NCBI GenBank assembly: GCA_021791915.1
Contig: JAJYVQ010000002.1
Coordinates: 434-64,433, forward strand
Source: Actinomycetes bacterium
Lineage (GTDB): Bacteria > Actinomycetota > Acidimicrobiia > Acidimicrobiales > JABEUL01
Direction: 5' to 3'
DNA length: 64,000 nt
In this document: in pieces, positions 16,406 through 52,296 of the stretch
How the letters are laid out: each line of letters opens with the position of its first letter
Position numbering within the stretch: the stretch's first letter is position 1
Notes under the pieces: model-generated
The model's input: only the letters and a program-made list of their open reading frames with translations
Database searches by the model: none
What the model was told of the DNA's origin: nothing
Translations under genes and position numbers: made by a program

Positions 16406-16468
16406 GTTTAAGTCCTATGTTTAAATCCTATGTTTAAATCCTATGTTTAAATCCTATGTTTAAGTCCT
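16406..16468. repeat. intergenic tandem repeat, 13-bp unit x about 4.8 (gtttaaatcctat)
   Basis: Direct reading of the rplM-rpsI spacer. Confidence 0.9.
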
Positions 16469-21388: not shown

Positions 21389-21577
21389 TTAATTTAACCC
21401 TGCCATATTGTTACGTTCTGCCATATTGTTACGTTCTGCCATATTGTTGAGTTCTATTTTCCTGTTGAATACTGTCTTGCTATTAAGTTTCACTATACTA
21501 TTAAAGTTTTTTATTTTATCTGTAGTCACGTTAACTTCAGCAATCTTTTTATTGGTTGCAGCCATGAAAGTTATCAT
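21389..21577 (-). CDS. orphan 62-aa ORF in the rpmJ-rpsM spacer (uncertain whether it is a real gene)
   Basis: GGAGG lies 9 nt upstream of its ATG, and its TAA abuts the rpsM ATG. Against this, the protein is K/N-rich and low-complexity, and its C-terminus is built from an 18-bp repeat. Confidence 0.3.
   Translation of the reverse strand: MITFMAATNKKIAEVNVTTDKIKNFNSIVKLNSKTVFNRKIELNNMAERNNMAERNNMAGLN
21400..21453. repeat. tandem repeat, 18-bp unit x3 (ctgccatattgttacgtt)
   Basis: Direct reading, immediately upstream of the rpsM start. Confidence 0.9.
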
Positions 21578-25094: not shown

Positions 25095-25164
25095 GTTAAT
25101 CCCAACGTTAAGTTAATCCCAACGTTAAGTTAATCTCAGCATTAAATTAATCTCAGCGTTAAAT
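25095..25164. repeat. intergenic tandem repeats, 17-bp units (gttaatcccaacgttaa x2, then taatctcagc-type x2)
   Basis: Direct reading of the 346-bp rplO-secY spacer. Confidence 0.85.
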
Positions 25165-29971: not shown

Positions 29972-30050
29972 CTGTGTTCTTATCTGTTACTGTGTTCTTA
30001 TCTGTTACTGTATTCTTATCTGTTACTGTATTCTTATCTGTTACTGTGTT
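29972..30050. repeat. intergenic tandem repeat, 18-bp unit x about 4.4 (ctgtgttcttatctgtta)
   Basis: Direct reading of the 150-bp rpmC-rpsQ spacer, ending 9 nt upstream of the rpsQ ATG. Confidence 0.9.
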
Positions 30051-30113: not shown

Positions 30114-30716
30114 TTATTCTGCGACTTTATCTGAAGACTCCGAATCTTTTTCTTCATCTAAATCGCTATCTTCATCCGCTTTATTAGAATCTTCAGCATT
30201 AGCATTCACTTTATTACTGTCTTCAGCATTACTGTCTTCAGCATTACTGTCTTCAGCATCATCTTCTTCTAATACTTCTTGGTTTGATACTTGGTTTTTG
30301 GTATCCGCTTCAAAGTCTTCATCTTGATCATCCAAGTTATCTGATTCGGTATACAACTCGTCATACTCTTCAGATTCGTCCTCAACTAAAGTAGCTTTTT
30401 TAGCTTCCTCTTCCAACTCTTTTTCAACCATCCTAGCTTTTGTACCGAAAAGTCTGCCTTCTTTTGCTTTATACTTTGCAACAACTTCACCTTCGGACTT
30501 TTGTGTCGGTTTCAAATGGACAATATTTAATTCTTTTTCATGAATAATTGTTATAAGTCTGGCAATTTCACGCTTAAGTTTTTTAATAGATGATACGTCT
30601 CCAAGTTGATTTGTAGCAGCTCTAAACTTTAAAGCTGTCAGCTCCTTTCTGGCATCTTTTAGCCTTGAAACAAGCTCTTCATCATGATAAGTTGAAAGCT
30701 CCGAGGCCTTAGTCAT
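30114..30716 (-). CDS. rpmC: 50S ribosomal protein L29 with a ~135-aa acidic C-terminal extension
   Basis: The first ~65 aa match L29 ([27 protein letters not shown]...IARLITI). The remainder is D/E/S/N-rich with AEDSN repeats. Confidence 0.88.
30213..30257. repeat. in-frame tandem repeat, 15-bp unit x3
   Basis: It encodes AEDSN x3 in the L29 tail. Confidence 0.85.
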
Positions 30717-31142: not shown

Positions 31143-32060
31143 CTATTCGTTCTCCTTCTTAAAGTGAGGTGTTTCGTGATGATCGCCTCGAACGCGCCTT
31201 TCGATTTCCTCTTCTTCGGCCAAAAGTTTTTCCAACTCATCTACATCCCCAGAAGATGCTGCCGTTTGAACTACTGTTTCAACAACTACATCTTCACCAG
31301 GATTATCGGCGACCAAAGCGGATTTCCTTTTACCTCCACCAGCAGTTACAATACGTTTTTTCGGCGTGAGGATTGGGCTTTCTGCTTGGGGCGTTTGTTC
31401 TTGAACATGCCTATCGTCGACAGAAGTACGATACGGGACTACGTCGCCTTTATATATCCAAACCTTAACTCCGATTCTGCCAAAAGTTGTCTTGGCTTCT
31501 CTGACTCCATAATCGATATCGGCCCGAAGAGTATGGAGTGGCACTCTCCCTTCGCTGTAAGCTTCTTTTCTAGCCATTTCTGCACCACCCAATCTTCCAG
31601 AACACTGAACTTTTATTCCAAGACCGCCAGCTTTCTGCACAGACTGGATAGCTCTTTTCATAGCACGCCTAAAACTGATTCTTCGTGACAACTGATCGGC
31701 AATACTCTGGGCAATTAAGCTTGCATCTAAATCAGGCTGTTTAATTTCCTGAATGTTAAGCTGTATTTTATTGTTGCCAGTAATCCTTTCTAACTTCTTA
31801 CGTAACCTTTCGGCTTCTGCCCCTCTTCGCCCAATTACTATTCCAGGTCTCGCAGAATGTATATCGACTTTTAGTCTATCTCTAGTTCGCTCCACTTCAA
31901 TTCTAGATATCGCAGCAGCTTCAAGTTGAGAGTTAAGAAAATCTCTGATTTTCCAATCTTCTATAACAGTTTGTCGATAGTTCTTTTCATCAAACCATCG
32001 TGACTTCCAATCGGTTGTCACACCTATTCTAAAGCCGTAAGGATTTACTTTCTGTCCCAT
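31143..32060 (-). CDS. rpsC: 30S ribosomal protein S3 (extended C-terminus)
   Basis: [23 protein letters not shown]-terminus with KH and S3-C domains, followed by a ~90-aa tail. Confidence 0.95.
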
Positions 32061-32840
32061 TTAATCTTCCTTCTCAGCATCATCTAATTCAGCATCATCT
32101 AATTCAGTAGTAGTTAAATCGGTATTATCCACCACTACATCACTTGACTCATTTTCGACCGTATCATTGTCGTCTGTTGTTTTAGTAACCTCTATATTTT
32201 TGCCCGTGGTTTCTTCTTCTAGCTCAGTTTCCGTTTCTTTTTCAGCTTTTACCGAACTTTCAAGGTCATCTATTTCAACTTCTTCTGTATTTGAGACGTT
32301 TTCACTGTTATCTACATTTGCTGACGACTCGGTAACTTCCTCAGTTGTGTCGGAACCTTCCTTAGCTAACGACAAATCATCTATTTGTTTATCCGCTCCA
32401 GATTCCTGAGCTGCTTTAACTCTTCTCTGACGCTTTGCGGTCAGTTCGGCATTTTTTCTTTCTCTAATTTTTGTCAACTCTTCGTCAGACAGACGTGCCA
32501 ACGATATCGTTATGTGACAAGTTCTTTTACGAATTCGACTTGCCCTTCCTCTCGCTCTAGGACGAAATCTTTTAATGGTCATACCCTCATCGGCATAACA
32601 CTCTAATACATAGAGTTCCATAGCTTCAAAGCCCTGTCGGCTCTGAGCGTTGGCCAAAGCTGCTACCAGAATTTTCTTCACCATTCCAGCAGAACCTCTA
32701 TTAGTGTTCTCGAGGATACCCAGCGCAACCTCTGCCTGCTGACCCCTTATTAAATCCAAAACTTCACGCACCTTAAAGGCAGAAAATCTGATATGTTTTG
32801 CCGAAGCACTTGCAATCGGTTCGCTTGAAATAACTGTCAT
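32061..32840 (-). CDS. rplV: 50S ribosomal protein L22 with a ~130-aa acidic C-terminal extension
   Basis: L22 core (KRFRPRARGRASRIRKRTCHITI) followed by a D/E/T/S-rich tail that ends in a DDAEL repeat. Confidence 0.92.
   Translation of the reverse strand: MTVISSEPIASASAKHIRFSAFKVREVLDLIRGQQAEVALGILENTNRGSAGMVKKILVAALANAQSRQGFEAMELYVLECYADEGMTIKRFRPRARGRASRIRKRTCHITISLARLSDEELTKIRERKNAELTAKRQRRVKAAQESGADKQIDDLSLAKEGSDTTEEVTESSANVDNSENVSNTEEVEIDDLESSVKAEKETETELEEETTGKNIEVTKTTDDNDTVENESSDVVVDNTDLTTTELDDAELDDAEKED
32075..32107. repeat. in-frame tandem repeat, 15-bp unit x2.2 (cagcatcatctaatt)
   Basis: It encodes ELDDA x2 at the L22 C-terminus. Confidence 0.8.
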
Positions 32841-34269: not shown

Positions 34270-34997
34270 TAGCTATCACTTCCTTCATTATTTTCAACTT
34301 CGATATCTTGTTTTAAACCAGTCGAGCTAATGAAAGACAAACTCTCATCATCAAAAATTAACCAGTCTGAGTTCAAAACAGAATAAGTGGTCAACTGTTT
34401 TACTAGTATCGGTTCAACTAAAGGTAAATTTCTGAAAGACTTTTCTGCAAGAGAATTTAAATCTGTCAACGCTATTAATATATTTTTTCTGACCTTAATT
34501 TTTTCCAACAAATTAACGGCGGTTCTTGTCGAAGGAGCATCAAAGTCAAACGAACTGATAACTGCGATACGATTCAACCTAGCTCGATCTGACAAGGCCG
34601 AATAAAGTGAACCTCTTACCATCTTTTTTGGAGTATTTTGCTCGTAACTTCTAGGCTTAGGTCCTAAGGCTACCCCTCCTTTAGTGAACTGGGGAGCCCT
34701 CGTCGTACCTTGCCGTGCTCGGCCAGTACCTTTCTGTCTAAAAGGCTTTGCCCCACCTCCGCGTACCTCAGACCGTGTCTTAGTTGACTGAGTTCCAGCT
34801 CTTAAAGAAGCTAAGTAAGCAGTAACTACCTGATGCATTAGAGCAACATTAGGAGTTCTGCCAAAAACTTGGGGATCTAAATCCACATCGTTCAAATACT
34901 CCCCCTCAAAAGAATATCTTTTTGCCGATCTTTGTGCCAATATAATCTCAGACTTATGTGTACCTAGCTTATGTGTACCTAGTAAACCGATCGACAT
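34269..34997 (-). CDS. rplD: 50S ribosomal protein L4
   Basis: VRGGGAKPFRQKGTGRARQG motif. The N-terminus contains an LGTHK x2 repeat. Confidence 0.94.
   Translation of the reverse strand: MSIGLLGTHKLGTHKSEIILAQRSAKRYSFEGEYLNDVDLDPQVFGRTPNVALMHQVVTAYLASLRAGTQSTKTRSEVRGGGAKPFRQKGTGRARQGTTRAPQFTKGGVALGPKPRSYEQNTPKKMVRGSLYSALSDRARLNRIAVISSFDFDAPSTRTAVNLLEKIKVRKNILIALTDLNSLAEKSFRNLPLVEPILVKQLTTYSVLNSDWLIFDDESLSFISSTGLKQDIEVENNEGSDS
34953..34982. repeat. in-frame tandem repeat, 15-bp unit x2 (cttatgtgtacctag)
   Basis: It encodes LGTHK x2 at codons 5-14 of rplD. Confidence 0.85.
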
Positions 34998-34999
34998 AG

Positions 35000-35641
35000 C
35001 TACCTACCCGCCTTTATCGCATCTCTCACCAATACAGTTCCTCCTTTTGGACCGGGCACTGCTCCTTTTAAAATTAGTATTGATTTTTCCAAGTCGCTCG
35101 AAACCACTTCGAGATTTAAAGTTGTAACTTTAGCTGCACCCATTTGACCTGCCATCTTTGTTCCCTTGAAAACCCTAGAAGGAGTAGCACAAGCTCCTAT
35201 AGATCCGGGTGCCCTGTGTTTTTTATGGTTCCCGTGGCCTGCTCCCTGCCCTTTAAAATTGTGACGCTTCATACCGCCAGTAAATCCCTTTCCTTTAGAG
35301 ATAGCAGTTACGTCCACTTTTTGCCCTTTTTCAATCTGTTCTAAGGTAATGTTCTGACCAACTTCATAAGAGCTAACATCATCCAATCTGAGCTCTAATA
35401 ACTTAGCCCCTGGTTTTACATCGTGAGCTTCAAAGTGTCCAAGCTCTGGTTTATTCAATTTAGACTCTCTAATGAAACCAGTAGTTACCTGAAGTGCCCT
35501 GTAACCATCAGTTTCATCTTTTTTAACCTGAACGATAGTTATATCTTCGATCTTTAATACAGTTACTGGAATCACCCGATTTTGTTCGTCCCAAATCTGA
35601 GTCATTCCAATCTTTTTTCCGACAATCGCTTTTGCTGTCAT
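35000..35641 (-). CDS. rplC: 50S ribosomal protein L3
   Basis: GKKIGMTQIW N-terminus and FKGQGAGHGNHKKHRAPGSIG. Confidence 0.96.
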   Translation of the reverse strand: MTAKAIVGKKIGMTQIWDEQNRVIPVTVLKIEDITIVQVKKDETDGYRALQVTTGFIRESKLNKPELGHFEAHDVKPGAKLLELRLDDVSSYEVGQNITLEQIEKGQKVDVTAISKGKGFTGGMKRHNFKGQGAGHGNHKKHRAPGSIGACATPSRVFKGTKMAGQMGAAKVTTLNLEVVSSDLEKSILILKGAVPGPKGGTVLVRDAIKAGR

Positions 35642-35650
35642 AGTTTATCC

Positions 35651-35686
35651 AGTTCTTAAAATTACAGTTCTTAAAATTACAGTTAC
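35651..35686. repeat. intergenic tandem repeat, 15-bp unit x about 2.4 (agttcttaaaattac)
   Basis: Direct reading, 10 nt upstream of the rplC ATG. Confidence 0.85.
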
Positions 35687-35910
35687 TCGTTTTAATATTC
35701 AATATGGTTTCACCTATTGGGTTAAAGTCTTAAAGTAACTTTAAGGTACCATATCTGTAAATAAAATTTATATATATTCAGTGTTTATATATATTTTGTA
35801 TTTATAAATATTCTGTGTTTATTTACAGTTCAACCAAATGCACCGCATCCAAACTTTTGGTTCAAATACGACTGCACAACACAGTTTTTGGCAAAACAAA
35901 TATCTTTATT

Positions 35911-35989
35911 AGCAGATAAATTAACGAACTTTTTTAAATTAACCCAGACGTTAAACCAAAGTTTAATTTATCTGTTTAATTTATCTGCT
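35911..35989. repeat. 14-bp perfect inverted repeat (AGCAGATAAATTAA / TTAATTTATCTGCT) with a 51-nt loop
   Basis: Direct reading. The 3' arm is part of a 13-bp tandem duplication (gtttaatttatct x2). Confidence 0.8.
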
Positions 35990-36180
35990 CTTATTTACAC
36001 TAAGTACTTACCGCTGTAAGGTCCCCATCGATTACTTCCGCTTTATTTCACGGATTAATTCCGCATATAACTTCATCGGTAGATCTTAAAAATTATAGCT
36101 TTACCTCTGTTGCAGATTTTAGAAACATTCCTTTCTAAATTTAGCTTTCCCAATCAAACCTTAAAAGTCGACCAGTTAAC

Positions 36181-36215
36181 ATCAAAACTGCGAACTGCAA
36201 TTTGTTGTTGCAGTT
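36181..36215 (-). terminator. candidate terminator or attenuator hairpin downstream of rpsJ
   Basis: 8-bp stem AACTGCAA/TTGCAGTT with a 7-nt loop. On the minus strand it is followed by CGCAGTTTTGAT. It lies about 120 nt after the rpsJ stop. Confidence 0.35.
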
Positions 36216-36333
36216 ATTCTAAGTAAAACCTAAATTTTAATCTCAGGGCGCTGACAGACCAATTTATTTATTTTCCTAAATCATTTTAGTACGTTTTTTT
36301 TATCAAATTTTCAAACCAAGCATCATCACCAAA

Positions 36334-36657
36334 CTAAGACTGAATCTTGATGGCTATATCCACTCCAGCGGGCAAATCCAACCTTTGTAGCGAATCAACC
36401 GTTTTGGATGAATGATCTACTATATCTATCAGTCTTTTGTGAATTCTCATCTCAAAGTGTTCTCTGGAATCCTTGTACTTATGCGGGGATCGGATTACCG
36501 TATAACGATGCTTTTCGGTGGGAAGCGGTACTGGACCGTTGACTTTAGCTTGCGTTCGCAATACGGTATCAACAATTTTTTGAGTTGAAGTGTCCAAGAC
36601 TTCATGATCATAAGCCTTCAGCCTTATCCTAATTTTTTGACCTGACGAACCTGCCAT
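36334..36657 (-). CDS. rpsJ: 30S ribosomal protein S10
   Basis: [15 protein letters not shown] and [26 protein letters not shown]. The start is only 6 nt after the tuf stop. Confidence 0.96.
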
Positions 36658-36663
36658 TTTATC

Positions 36664-37851
36664 CTACTTTAAGATTTTGGTGACTCTTCCAGCACCTACC
36701 GTACGACCACCCTCTCGGATTGCAAATTTCAGTCCTTCATCCATTGCGATTGGCTTTCCAAGTTCGACGGTCATCGTAGTATTATCTCCCGGCATAACCA
36801 TTTCAATTGACTTGTCTAGCTCGATAGACCCAGTAACGTCAGTAGTCCTAAAATAAAACTGCGGTCGGTAACCGTTAAAGAATGGCTTGTGACGTCCACC
36901 TTCTTCTTTTTTAAGAACATAGACATTTGCTTCAAAAGAAGTGTGAGGAGTTATTGAGCCAGGCTTACAGAGAACTTGTCCTCTTTCAACCTCTTCTTTT
37001 TTAGTCCCTCTTAAAAGTGCGCCAATATTGTCGCCCGCTTCCGCTTCGTCCAACATCTTGTGAAACATCTCTACTCCAGTACACACCGTCTTTTGAGTTG
37101 GACGCAATCCAACTATTTCTACTTCGTCACCAACGTGCAAAAGACCTGTTTCAATACGTCCAGTAACCACGGTCCCTCGACCAGGTATGGTCATAACATC
37201 TTCAACCGACATTAAGAAAGGCTTGTCTTTTTCTCTGTTGGGCTGAGGAATAAACTCATCTACTTGGGCCATCAACTCCAAAATACCTTTGGTAGCTTCG
37301 GGGTCTCCTTCCAGAGCTTTTAATGCGCTTACTTTAACGACTGGAGTATCGTCACCTGGAAACTCGTACTCATTCAAAAGTTCACGAACTTCCATTTCCA
37401 CCAAATCTAAAAGCTCGGGATCGTCTACGGCATCGCACTTGTTCAATGCCACAACTATGGATGGTACTCCAACTTGACGAGCCAAAAGTACGTGCTCTCT
37501 GGTTTGGGGCATCGGTCCGTCAGTTGCACTAACGACTAAAATAGCTCCGTCGACCTGAGCTGCTCCAGTAATCATGTTTTTAATATAGTCGGCATGTCCA
37601 GGCATGTCCACATGAGCATAGTGTCTTTTTTCGGTCTCATATTCAACGTGAGCAATTGAGATCGTTATACCTCTAGCTCTCTCTTCAGGTGCCTTATCGA
37701 TCTGATCAAATGGAGTAAATGACACATTCGGATTATTCTCAGACAGCACTTTAGTAATCGCTGCCGTTAACGTAGTTTTACCATGGTCGATATGACCCAT
37801 TGTCCCGACGTTTACATGCGGTTTGTTCCGCTCAAATTTTTGTTTAGCCAT
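36664..37851 (-). CDS. tuf: elongation factor Tu
   Basis: [18 protein letters not shown] and NKCD GTPase motifs. Confidence 0.98.
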
Positions 37852-38065
37852 TAGCTCTTTTCCTTTGCTCCATTATTAAAAAAGTAAAGATACAGTTCTT
37901 TACCAACCTTGTAATTAAAAATTTGATAGAAATAAAATATTAGCGCAATTTTCTATCTATGTTTTACCAAATGTTATGTAGCAACTCAATTTTGTAGATG
38001 AATTACCCGATCTAACTTTGATATTCAGTTGTTTACAAATTTATCGCTATTGTAATTTACTGCTC

Positions 38066-38167
38066 AATTTATTCTTATTTAATTTATTCTTATTTAATTT
38101 ATTCTTATTTAATTTATTCTTATTTAATTTATTCTTATTTAATTTATTCTTATTTAATTTATTCTTA
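38066..38167. repeat. intergenic tandem repeat, 15-bp unit x about 6.8 (aatttattcttattt)
   Basis: Direct reading of the 432-bp fusA-tuf spacer. Confidence 0.92.
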
Positions 38168-38283
38168 CTGTTATTCTTATATTATTATTTTTAGGTTTTT
38201 ATATTTAGGTTTTTATTATGGTAGTTTTACTTTAATTAATTAAAAGTTCGCTATCATGTTAAAAAACGATCTAAGTAGGTCAA

Positions 38284-49788: not shown

Positions 49789-49869
49789 ATTTTCTCCTTA
49801 TTTTTTATACTTTTTATTTTTTACTCGAATACTTGTTTGAAATAAATTTATATTTGCCTTTTTATACTC

Positions 49870-49909
49870 GCTTGTTTATATTTGCTTGTTTATATTTGAC
49901 TGTTTATTA
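49870..49909. repeat. intergenic tandem repeat, 14-bp unit x about 2.8 (gcttgtttatattt)
   Basis: Direct reading of the rplJ-rplL spacer. Confidence 0.75.
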
Positions 49910-52160: not shown

Positions 52161-52250
52161 AAACTGTTTCCTTTAAAATTACTCTTTACCTAAAATATCC
52201 TGTTACAAACTATCCTGCGACAATTTAAAATTAAGCTAAATTATCCAAGC

Positions 52251-52296
52251 CAAATTATTATCTAAGTCAAATTATTATCTAAGTCAAATTATTCAT
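52251..52296. repeat. intergenic tandem repeat, 17-bp unit x about 2.7 (caaattattatctaagt)
   Basis: Direct reading of the nusG-rplK spacer. Confidence 0.85.

Follow-up and report, generated by a model that had tools for sequence, protein, structure and literature searches.

Gene organization between tuf and rplC

The stretch examined here, a 64-kb segment of contig JAJYVQ010000002.1 from an Acidimicrobiales bacterium (hereafter the window), carries a ribosomal protein (r-protein)/rpoBC supercluster, and at the locus in question all of its genes are encoded on the minus strand, as are the features described below unless stated otherwise. Our subject is the 692 nt spacer that separates rpsJ from rplC (35642..36333), which we propose to be an operon boundary combined with an expanded rplC leader. 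Upstream, tuf (EF-Tu, 395 aa; 36664..37851), assigned from its open reading frame (ORF) and translation and supported by Pfam GTP_EFTU domains on the identical gene in locus L001, terminates with a TAG stop codon at 36664-36666. Sequence reading places rpsJ (S10, 107 aa; 36334..36657, assigned by ORF, Pfam Ribosomal_S10 and synteny) only 6 nt further on (GATAAA, 36658..36663), with an AGGA Shine-Dalgarno sequence at 36662-36665 overlapping the tuf stop codon. The following gene, rplC, occupies 35000..35641.

No ORF of 60 aa or more exists in the spacer on either strand, the longest start-codon ORFs touching it being 59, 43, 38 and 34 aa, and its guanine-cytosine (GC) content is 0.26-0.37 vs approximately 0.40-0.47 for the flanking genes. 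Both gene distances, the missing long ORF and the AGGA overlap had been pointed out in an earlier sequence-only reading of this DNA and were confirmed by the ORF list and the sequence itself. As in a str-type operon, rpsJ directly follows the EF-Tu gene (6 nt) and stands apart from rplC (692 nt); it probably closes a str-type unit, rpsL-rpsG-fusA-tuf-rpsJ, and would be expressed together with tuf.

An S10 protein identical to that of the window is present on contigs of several metagenome-assembled genomes (MAGs) and assemblies, and sequencing runs containing the spacer come from mine drainage, sediment, wastewater and one unspecified metagenome.

The rpsJ/rplC split is the clade layout

The close packing of rpsJ onto tuf and its separation from rplC had been taken as a rearrangement of the S10 operon in this genome, a view that comparison with relatives does not sustain. 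Gene distances were measured in 80 genome loci and complemented with 80 further metagenome loci retrieved via the L3 protein. By S10, the closest genomes are Acidimicrobiales/Acidimicrobiia MAGs (76-87% identity). The tuf-rpsJ gap of Acidimicrobiales-type genome loci ranges from -1 to 63 nt, L017 being the sole exception (195 nt), and their rpsJ-rplC gap from 181 to 379 nt, reaching 1.7 and 3.4 kb in two loci; in five others, rplC is not found within 4 kb of rpsJ. Other Actinomycetota (Streptomyces, Micromonospora, Nocardioides, Nanopelagicales and others) have at least 57 nt, mostly more than 100, between tuf and rpsJ and -4 to 73 nt, mostly 10-30, between rpsJ and rplC, a pattern also followed by a few MAGs labelled Acidimicrobiia. 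Among the metagenome loci, rpsJ is located upstream in 62 of the 80 at 144-1733 nt from rplC (median 295), and where tuf is also present it lies 4-48 nt from rpsJ in 51 out of 53 cases, the remaining two showing 136 and 152 nt.

The large rpsJ-rplC gaps of relatives contain unrelated genes: a 388-aa membrane protein encoded on the opposite strand in L083 (4407-5573, minus strand) and two unrelated ORFs in L021 (4377-7445), including an esterase-like protein. Such occupancy by unrelated genes indicates that the clade has a true operon boundary at the rpsJ|rplC junction. Joined tuf-rpsJ and split rpsJ-rplC are what a large Acidimicrobiales clade normally shows and not a peculiarity of the window, an architecture in which rpsJ is packed onto tuf and rplC heads its own unit.

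In six relatives (L012, L013, L014, L049, L050 and L070), visual inspection finds a GC-rich hairpin after rpsJ, approximately 20-60 nt past the stop codon, followed by a conserved GGTGTA(N3)T block located upstream of the RNA motif described in the next section; by eye, this block resembles the actinobacterial -10 element (TAnnnT). Such an arrangement would fit transcription that ends after rpsJ and an rplC promoter of its own in relatives.

A covarying RNA motif precedes rplC in relatives

Ribosomal-protein leaders are the main means by which bacteria balance r-protein and rRNA synthesis and, to our knowledge, few of them are known for the large S10-type operon outside Gammaproteobacteria and Bacilli. 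The spacers of 15 high-GC relatives have in common a block of about 95 nt that sits 22-132 nt before rplC. Its elements are, in order, GAcGU, helix P1, nnGCC, hairpin P1a, GG(G/A)ACC, the 3′ strand of P1, CACAACC, a short linker, hairpin P2 and a GUUSGCGUG tail. P1 consists of a closing G-C pair, a bulged U and six further pairs; P1a is a variable hairpin closed by CC:GG, with 5-26 nt between GCC and GG; P2 is a GC-rich hairpin (CGCUCCGC...GCGGAGCG) immediately preceding the tail. An additional outer helix between 5′ GACGU and 3′ GCGUG was considered and dropped because its middle pair is often mismatched (by eye).

Two covariance models were built, R1 for the full motif from the 15 sequences and R2 for the 5′ domain only. 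R1 matches 76 of the 80 independent metagenome loci on the coding strand, directly upstream of rplC, with 42-88 bits, and the misses are mostly loci without upstream sequence; the loci of other Actinomycetota gave no R1 match. The motif was noted across L012-L025, L049, L050, L070, L083, L021 and L095-L174, and it stays with rplC where the two genes are far apart, including the loci with inserted genes.

Independently of the models, a MAFFT alignment of 82 sequences places standard pairs in 96.2% of the pair cells, a value that drops to 34-47% when partners are slid by 1-3 columns. Compensatory changes occur in 15 of the 22 motif pairs (215 cells), and the observed values were not equalled by any shuffle. 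G.U pairs are frequent in P1, which favours an RNA structure over a DNA palindrome. Rfam 15 returned no match to the motif in the eight relatives searched, nor in two relatives searched at an E-value threshold, and for rplC-led operons a survey of r-protein leaders (r-leaders) offers only an archaeal L4 candidate (PMC7247131). The clade-wide occurrence of the motif is solid. From its sequence and covariation, we regard it as a candidate ribosomal-protein leader of Acidimicrobiales, new to Rfam and to that 2020 survey; its strong covariation, its position upstream of rplC and its absence from Rfam make it a concrete target for studies of binding and regulation.

Two conserved blocks in the window spacer

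The lineage of the window is isolated: its nearest L3 proteins belong to two species at 84% identity, all others being at or below 71%. Both sister species share the window layout, their spacers measuring 682 nt in L091 and 706 nt in L093/L094. It had been asked earlier whether the spacer is conserved in relatives; the answer is that two short blocks are kept while the rest cannot be aligned among the three species, except for the rplC ribosome-binding region (AAGAACUGGAUAAACU, 35642..35657), conserved in the sister species as AGARCYGGAUURAUU in the three-species alignment.

Block A (GUCUGUCAGCGCCCUGAG, 36242..36259) is identical in all strains and agrees at 17 of 18 positions with both sister species (consensus over the three species GUCUGUYAGCGCCCUGAG), and Block B (AUGGGGACCUUACAGC, 36013..36028) is identical in the three species at all 16 positions. 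Neither block had been flagged in the sequence-only reading. Read against the clade motif, Block A comprises GU, six P1 bases, two bases and GCC exactly at clade spacing, that is, the G10 and bulged U11 positions, the P1 5′ strand (36252-36257) and the GCC junction (36247-36249). Block B reads as GG-G-A-C-C, six P1 bases and C, which corresponds to the GG closing pairs, the GACC side of the internal loop, the P1 3′ strand (36014-36019) and C46 (36013). The two strands, CUGUCA and UUACAG, form 5 of 6 pairs in the register of the relatives, retaining the closing G-C pair and the bulged U of the clade, and 11 of the 14 near-invariant positions of the 5′ domain are matched. What differs is the stretch between GCC and GG, 5-26 nt in relatives, which by sequence comparison is a lineage-specific P1a expansion of 221 nt in the window (36026..36246), 96 nt in L091 and 156 nt in L093. 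This P1/internal-loop core is the sole conserved non-coding sequence of the spacer besides the rplC ribosome-binding region.

A descriptor combining the near-invariant bases of the relatives with P1 complementarity, and tolerating as many as 300 nt within P1a, returned one match on both strands of the window, exactly Block A plus Block B. Shuffled windows yielded 0.21 matches each, only 4 of 20000 spacer shuffles contained any match, and 52 of 67 independent motifs were recovered. When the region 35900-36265 was folded, Block A paired with Block B in both the minimum free energy and centroid structures, in the register of the relatives and including the bulged U. P1 pair probabilities, with the region from Block A to Block B folded, are 0.89-0.97 for the window and 0.75-0.97 over the three species.

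Searches against Rfam brought nothing to bear on the spacer. Only 4 tRNAs were found in the entire window at gathering threshold, with no known r-protein leader (such as the L10 leader upstream of rplJ) detected in the supercluster at that threshold; a scan of the spacer at E<=10 gave two chance-level matches and no relevant family, and the sister species had no match in the region.

Several observations weigh against identifying the blocks with the clade motif or against a leader function. With filters off and E<=10, R1 and R2 find no match in the window spacer, nor do they in L091 and L093. The models fail because of the long insertion and the missing P2, so the homology of the window core rests on the descriptor, which was composed after both sequences were known and which, in GC-rich DNA, gives about one off-target match every 28-37 kb. 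The canonical P2 and the GUUSGCGUG tail are absent from the window, L091 and L093, the conserved GA and CACAACC positions of the motif are absent from the window lineage, and a C.U (or U.U) mismatch interrupts the P1 of the window. When longer stretches of L091 and L093 are folded, Block A pairs locally. The core lies approximately 370 nt from the rplC start, vs 22-132 nt for the motif of relatives, making direct occlusion of the ribosome-binding site unlikely. A promoter scan found no sigma-70-like promoter on the coding strand of the spacer, and three metatranscriptome runs of the same study contain no reads of the window organism at the locus, the few pieces recovered from them being tuf/fusA fragments of other species. 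Considering the descriptor, the three species and the folding together, we take it as plausible that Blocks A and B are the two P1 strands and the internal-loop junction of the clade motif.

The local partners seen in the sister species are the nearby GGACAA/GGUAGA, with which Block A alternatively pairs around a small CCCU...AGGG hairpin (L091 4416-4460, L093 629-680). These predicted folds might reflect a switch or a relic, as an alternative to the long-range P1.

Hairpins, repeats and the growth of spacers

The structures first noticed in this spacer lie elsewhere. All of them are present: a perfect 14-bp inverted repeat (35911-35924/35976-35989, from an inverted-repeat scan), a 9-of-10-bp stem (UUGAACCAAA/UUUGGUUGAA, 35829-35838/35856-35865) and a 7-bp hairpin (ACUGCAA-CAACAAA-UUGCAGU, 36193..36215, from sequence reading), along with tandem repeats, of which TRF reports three instead of the two initially listed: a 15-mer in 2.3 copies (35650-35684), an AT-rich 17-mer in 3.3 copies (35767-35822), similar to repeats that fill other spacers of the window, and a 13-mer in 2.1 copies (35961-35987), the last overlapping the 14-bp inverted repeat. 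As evidence of a structured element, they do not hold up: these hairpins and repeats are lineage-specific, absent or different in the two sister species, where the 9-of-10-bp stem cannot be aligned and, in L093, the 7-bp hairpin is not conserved. The proposal of an autoregulatory leader for the L3-L4... genes thus survives in part, since a portion of a conserved structured leader does appear to be present, but in the segments 36242-36259 and 36013-36028 and not in the structures named for it.

The 14-bp hairpin begins 24 nt after P1, the position of P2 in relatives, and is unrelated to P2 in sequence. Unrelated hairpins likewise follow P1 by 13 and 9 nt in the sister species. The 7-bp hairpin, located inside the P1a expansion, had been described as terminator-like; because it lacks a U tract, we reject this assignment, and the terminator scan does not call it either. 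On the coding strand of the spacer, that scan made a single weak call (35872-35842), and promoter-like and terminator-like counts in the region equal shuffle expectation. The fold z-score of the spacer region, about -2, is weak. In the AT-rich spacers of this genome, hairpins and repeats are poor evidence of function by themselves.

The window species occurs as two haplotypes, whose spacers measure 692 and 678 nt, the shorter one having one copy fewer of the 15-nt repeat at 35650-35684. The other ten differences between their spacers, all substitutions, fall outside Blocks A and B; one strain variant, 35921 A->G, keeps its pair in the inverted repeat as U.G. Ten substitutions over 692 nt are a density no higher than that of the synonymous-only differences in the flanking genes (13/1188 in tuf and 6/729 in rplD), and hence there is no clear signal either way.

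Inflated spacers are general in the window genome. The fusA-tuf spacer (37852-38283) measures 432 nt, vs a median of 66 nt in relatives, with a GC content of 16-30% and 6.8 perfect copies of a 15-mer (38066-38167); its length varies, L091 having 215 nt and further strains of the species approximately 372-417 nt. Short tandem repeats with a period of 13-18 nt and 2-7 copies are scattered by the dozen through the intergenic spacers of the r-protein/rpoBC supercluster, for instance at 16406-16468, 21400-21448, 25095-25162, 29972-30050, 49847-49907 and 52240-52293, and they look like a genome-wide mode of spacer growth. Some r-proteins are also unusually long, namely L29 (30114-30716, 200 aa), S3 (31143-32060, 305 aa), L22 (32061-32840, 259 aa) and L4 (34269-34997, 242 aa), and in-frame 15-nt tandem repeats occur in long r-protein genes (30213-30269, 32074-32107 and 34953-34982). 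Lengths differ among the sister species, L29 being 200, 173 and 158 aa.

Interpretation of the spacer

We favour, with moderate confidence, the explanation that the spacer is an operon boundary together with a remodelled rplC leader that retains the core of the clade RNA motif. The first unit would be a str-type operon ending with rpsJ translationally coupled to tuf, and the second the rplC-rplD-rplW-rplB-rpsS... operon. In wider Acidimicrobiales, rplC would be closely preceded at this boundary by the conserved structured 5′ leader; in the low-GC mine-drainage lineage, the surviving part would be the P1/internal-loop/CC:GG core formed by Blocks A and B, presumably still belonging to the leader of the rplC operon, with P1a blown up to 221 nt and P2 replaced by an unrelated hairpin. 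The approximately 370 nt between core and rplC would then be AT-rich, repeat-rich, fast-evolving sequence, matching the genome-wide inflation of spacers.

The core is probably an r-protein binding site that would feed back on the rplC operon, with L4 (by precedent), L3 (by adjacency) or S10 as possible ligands. Control exerted from some 370 nt away would need to act, for example, through RNA stability, processing or elongation. By retaining the P1/internal-loop core alone, the low-GC lineage amounts to a natural deletion/expansion experiment and indicates which part a ligand would most likely recognise.

A less generous explanation, which we consider unlikely, holds that the spacer is essentially non-functional inflated DNA, with rplC transcribed by read-through from tuf-rpsJ or from a simple promoter and with Blocks A and B being promoter or operator elements acting at the DNA level. 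All spacers of this genome being inflated and repeat-rich, the lack of alignment between sister species over most of the spacer, the polymorphic repeat copy number and the failure of the covariance models would all follow naturally, and Block A does lie 24-40 nt downstream of TAAAAT/TAGAAT hexamers that resemble -10 elements. Against it, the blocks are complementary in the exact register of a helix that covaries strongly in relatives, with G.U pairs that are meaningful only in RNA, a distance between blocks varying from 96 to 221 nt is unusual for a single DNA site, and spacer length is kept at 678-706 nt across three species.

Somewhat less probable again is that the core mimics helix h39 of 16S rRNA, in which case the ligand would be S10 or S9 instead of L4 or L3, and S10 would couple the rplC operon to its own level. 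The uS10 protein binds and stabilises h39 (PMC10695388). The comparison was made to the Rfam bacterial small-subunit rRNA consensus and to E. coli rRNA. In that consensus, h39 is a 7-bp helix followed by a 3x4 internal loop (UUg/aACU) and a Cc:gG helix, and the leader core has the same layout (7-bp helix, nnG/(G/A)ACC, CC:GG); moreover, this h39-like core is exactly the part kept in the window lineage. Against such mimicry, E. coli h39 is not among the R2 matches, and only a relaxed descriptor finds it, among 6 matches and with a one-base register shift. The leader does not keep two U's that are highly conserved in h39, and the motif accompanies rplC, not rpsJ, where the genes are separated. 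Having failed the covariance-model test on E. coli rRNA, h39 is kept as a lead only. The full-motif model R1 was also tried for rRNA mimicry: in the E. coli rrn operon it scored best at the 3′ end of 23S (6.5 bits, E 0.9), where the pairing contradicts the real fold, and this candidate was discarded.

Carried further, the h39 lead allows us to speculate that S10, whose gene has moved into the upstream tuf unit, controls the L3-L4-L23-L2... operon in trans, replacing the L4-based circuit of E. coli; we give this analogy little credence. If true, an S10-controlled RNA would still work with an expansion of more than 200 nt inside one hairpin and without its second domain.

Last, a small RNA gene in its own right, or what decay has left of a protein gene or mobile insertion, is very improbable: a 692 nt stretch with several stable hairpins and a z-score near -2, at a junction occupied by foreign genes in some relatives, would be in its favour, but that z-score is weak, Rfam has no match, no terminator follows the conserved part, and a remnant, as had once been suggested, is rejected since the spacer lacks any ORF of at least 60 aa, the proteins in the gaps of L083 and L021 show no tblastn similarity to the spacers, codon-like conservation is absent and, apart from the two blocks, no alignment of the three species is possible.

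Comparison with known systems

The obvious reference is the S10 leader of E. coli, an L4-interacting RNA that precedes rpsJ, its last helix overlapping the S10 start codon, and that is confined to Gammaproteobacteria (PMC3616713). Like it, the leader proposed here would be a structured 5′ leader for the rplC-rplD-rplW-rplB-rpsS... gene set. The E. coli leader acts by transcription attenuation and translational repression. A further parallel is that it conserves a small core and lets its upstream hairpins vary, even by large changes (PMC3616713). The putative window leader differs in that it is downstream of rpsJ, with only 6 nt left between tuf and rpsJ, has no U-tract terminator hairpin and is dissimilar in sequence and structure.

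Closer in position is the L4-Archaeoglobi r-leader candidate of Eckert & Weinberg (PMC7247131), found directly upstream of rplC, rplD, rplW and rplB with S10 not being the first gene. It is archaeal and already in Rfam, and the Acidimicrobiales motif is structurally different.

Regarding gene order, Archaea as a rule have the cluster ...S12-S7-(EF-2)-EF-1alpha-S10, in which uS10 is not joined to uL3-uL4-uL23 (PMC10833476). The window resembles this str/L30e cluster in having the S10 gene right behind that of EF-Tu/EF-1alpha and apart from the L3-L4-L23-L2 block, but it keeps both units side by side in one bacterial supercluster, with the putative leader-bearing spacer between them. Cyanobacterial and plastid str operons also end with rps10.

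The nearest counterpart is evidently the R1 motif of the clade itself. Position, strand, a P1 with closing G-C and bulged U, and the spacing of the GCC...GG(G)ACC junction are common to both, whereas the window differs in its P1a (221 vs 5-26 nt), in the loss of P2 and tail and in the distance to rplC (approximately 370 vs 22-132 nt).

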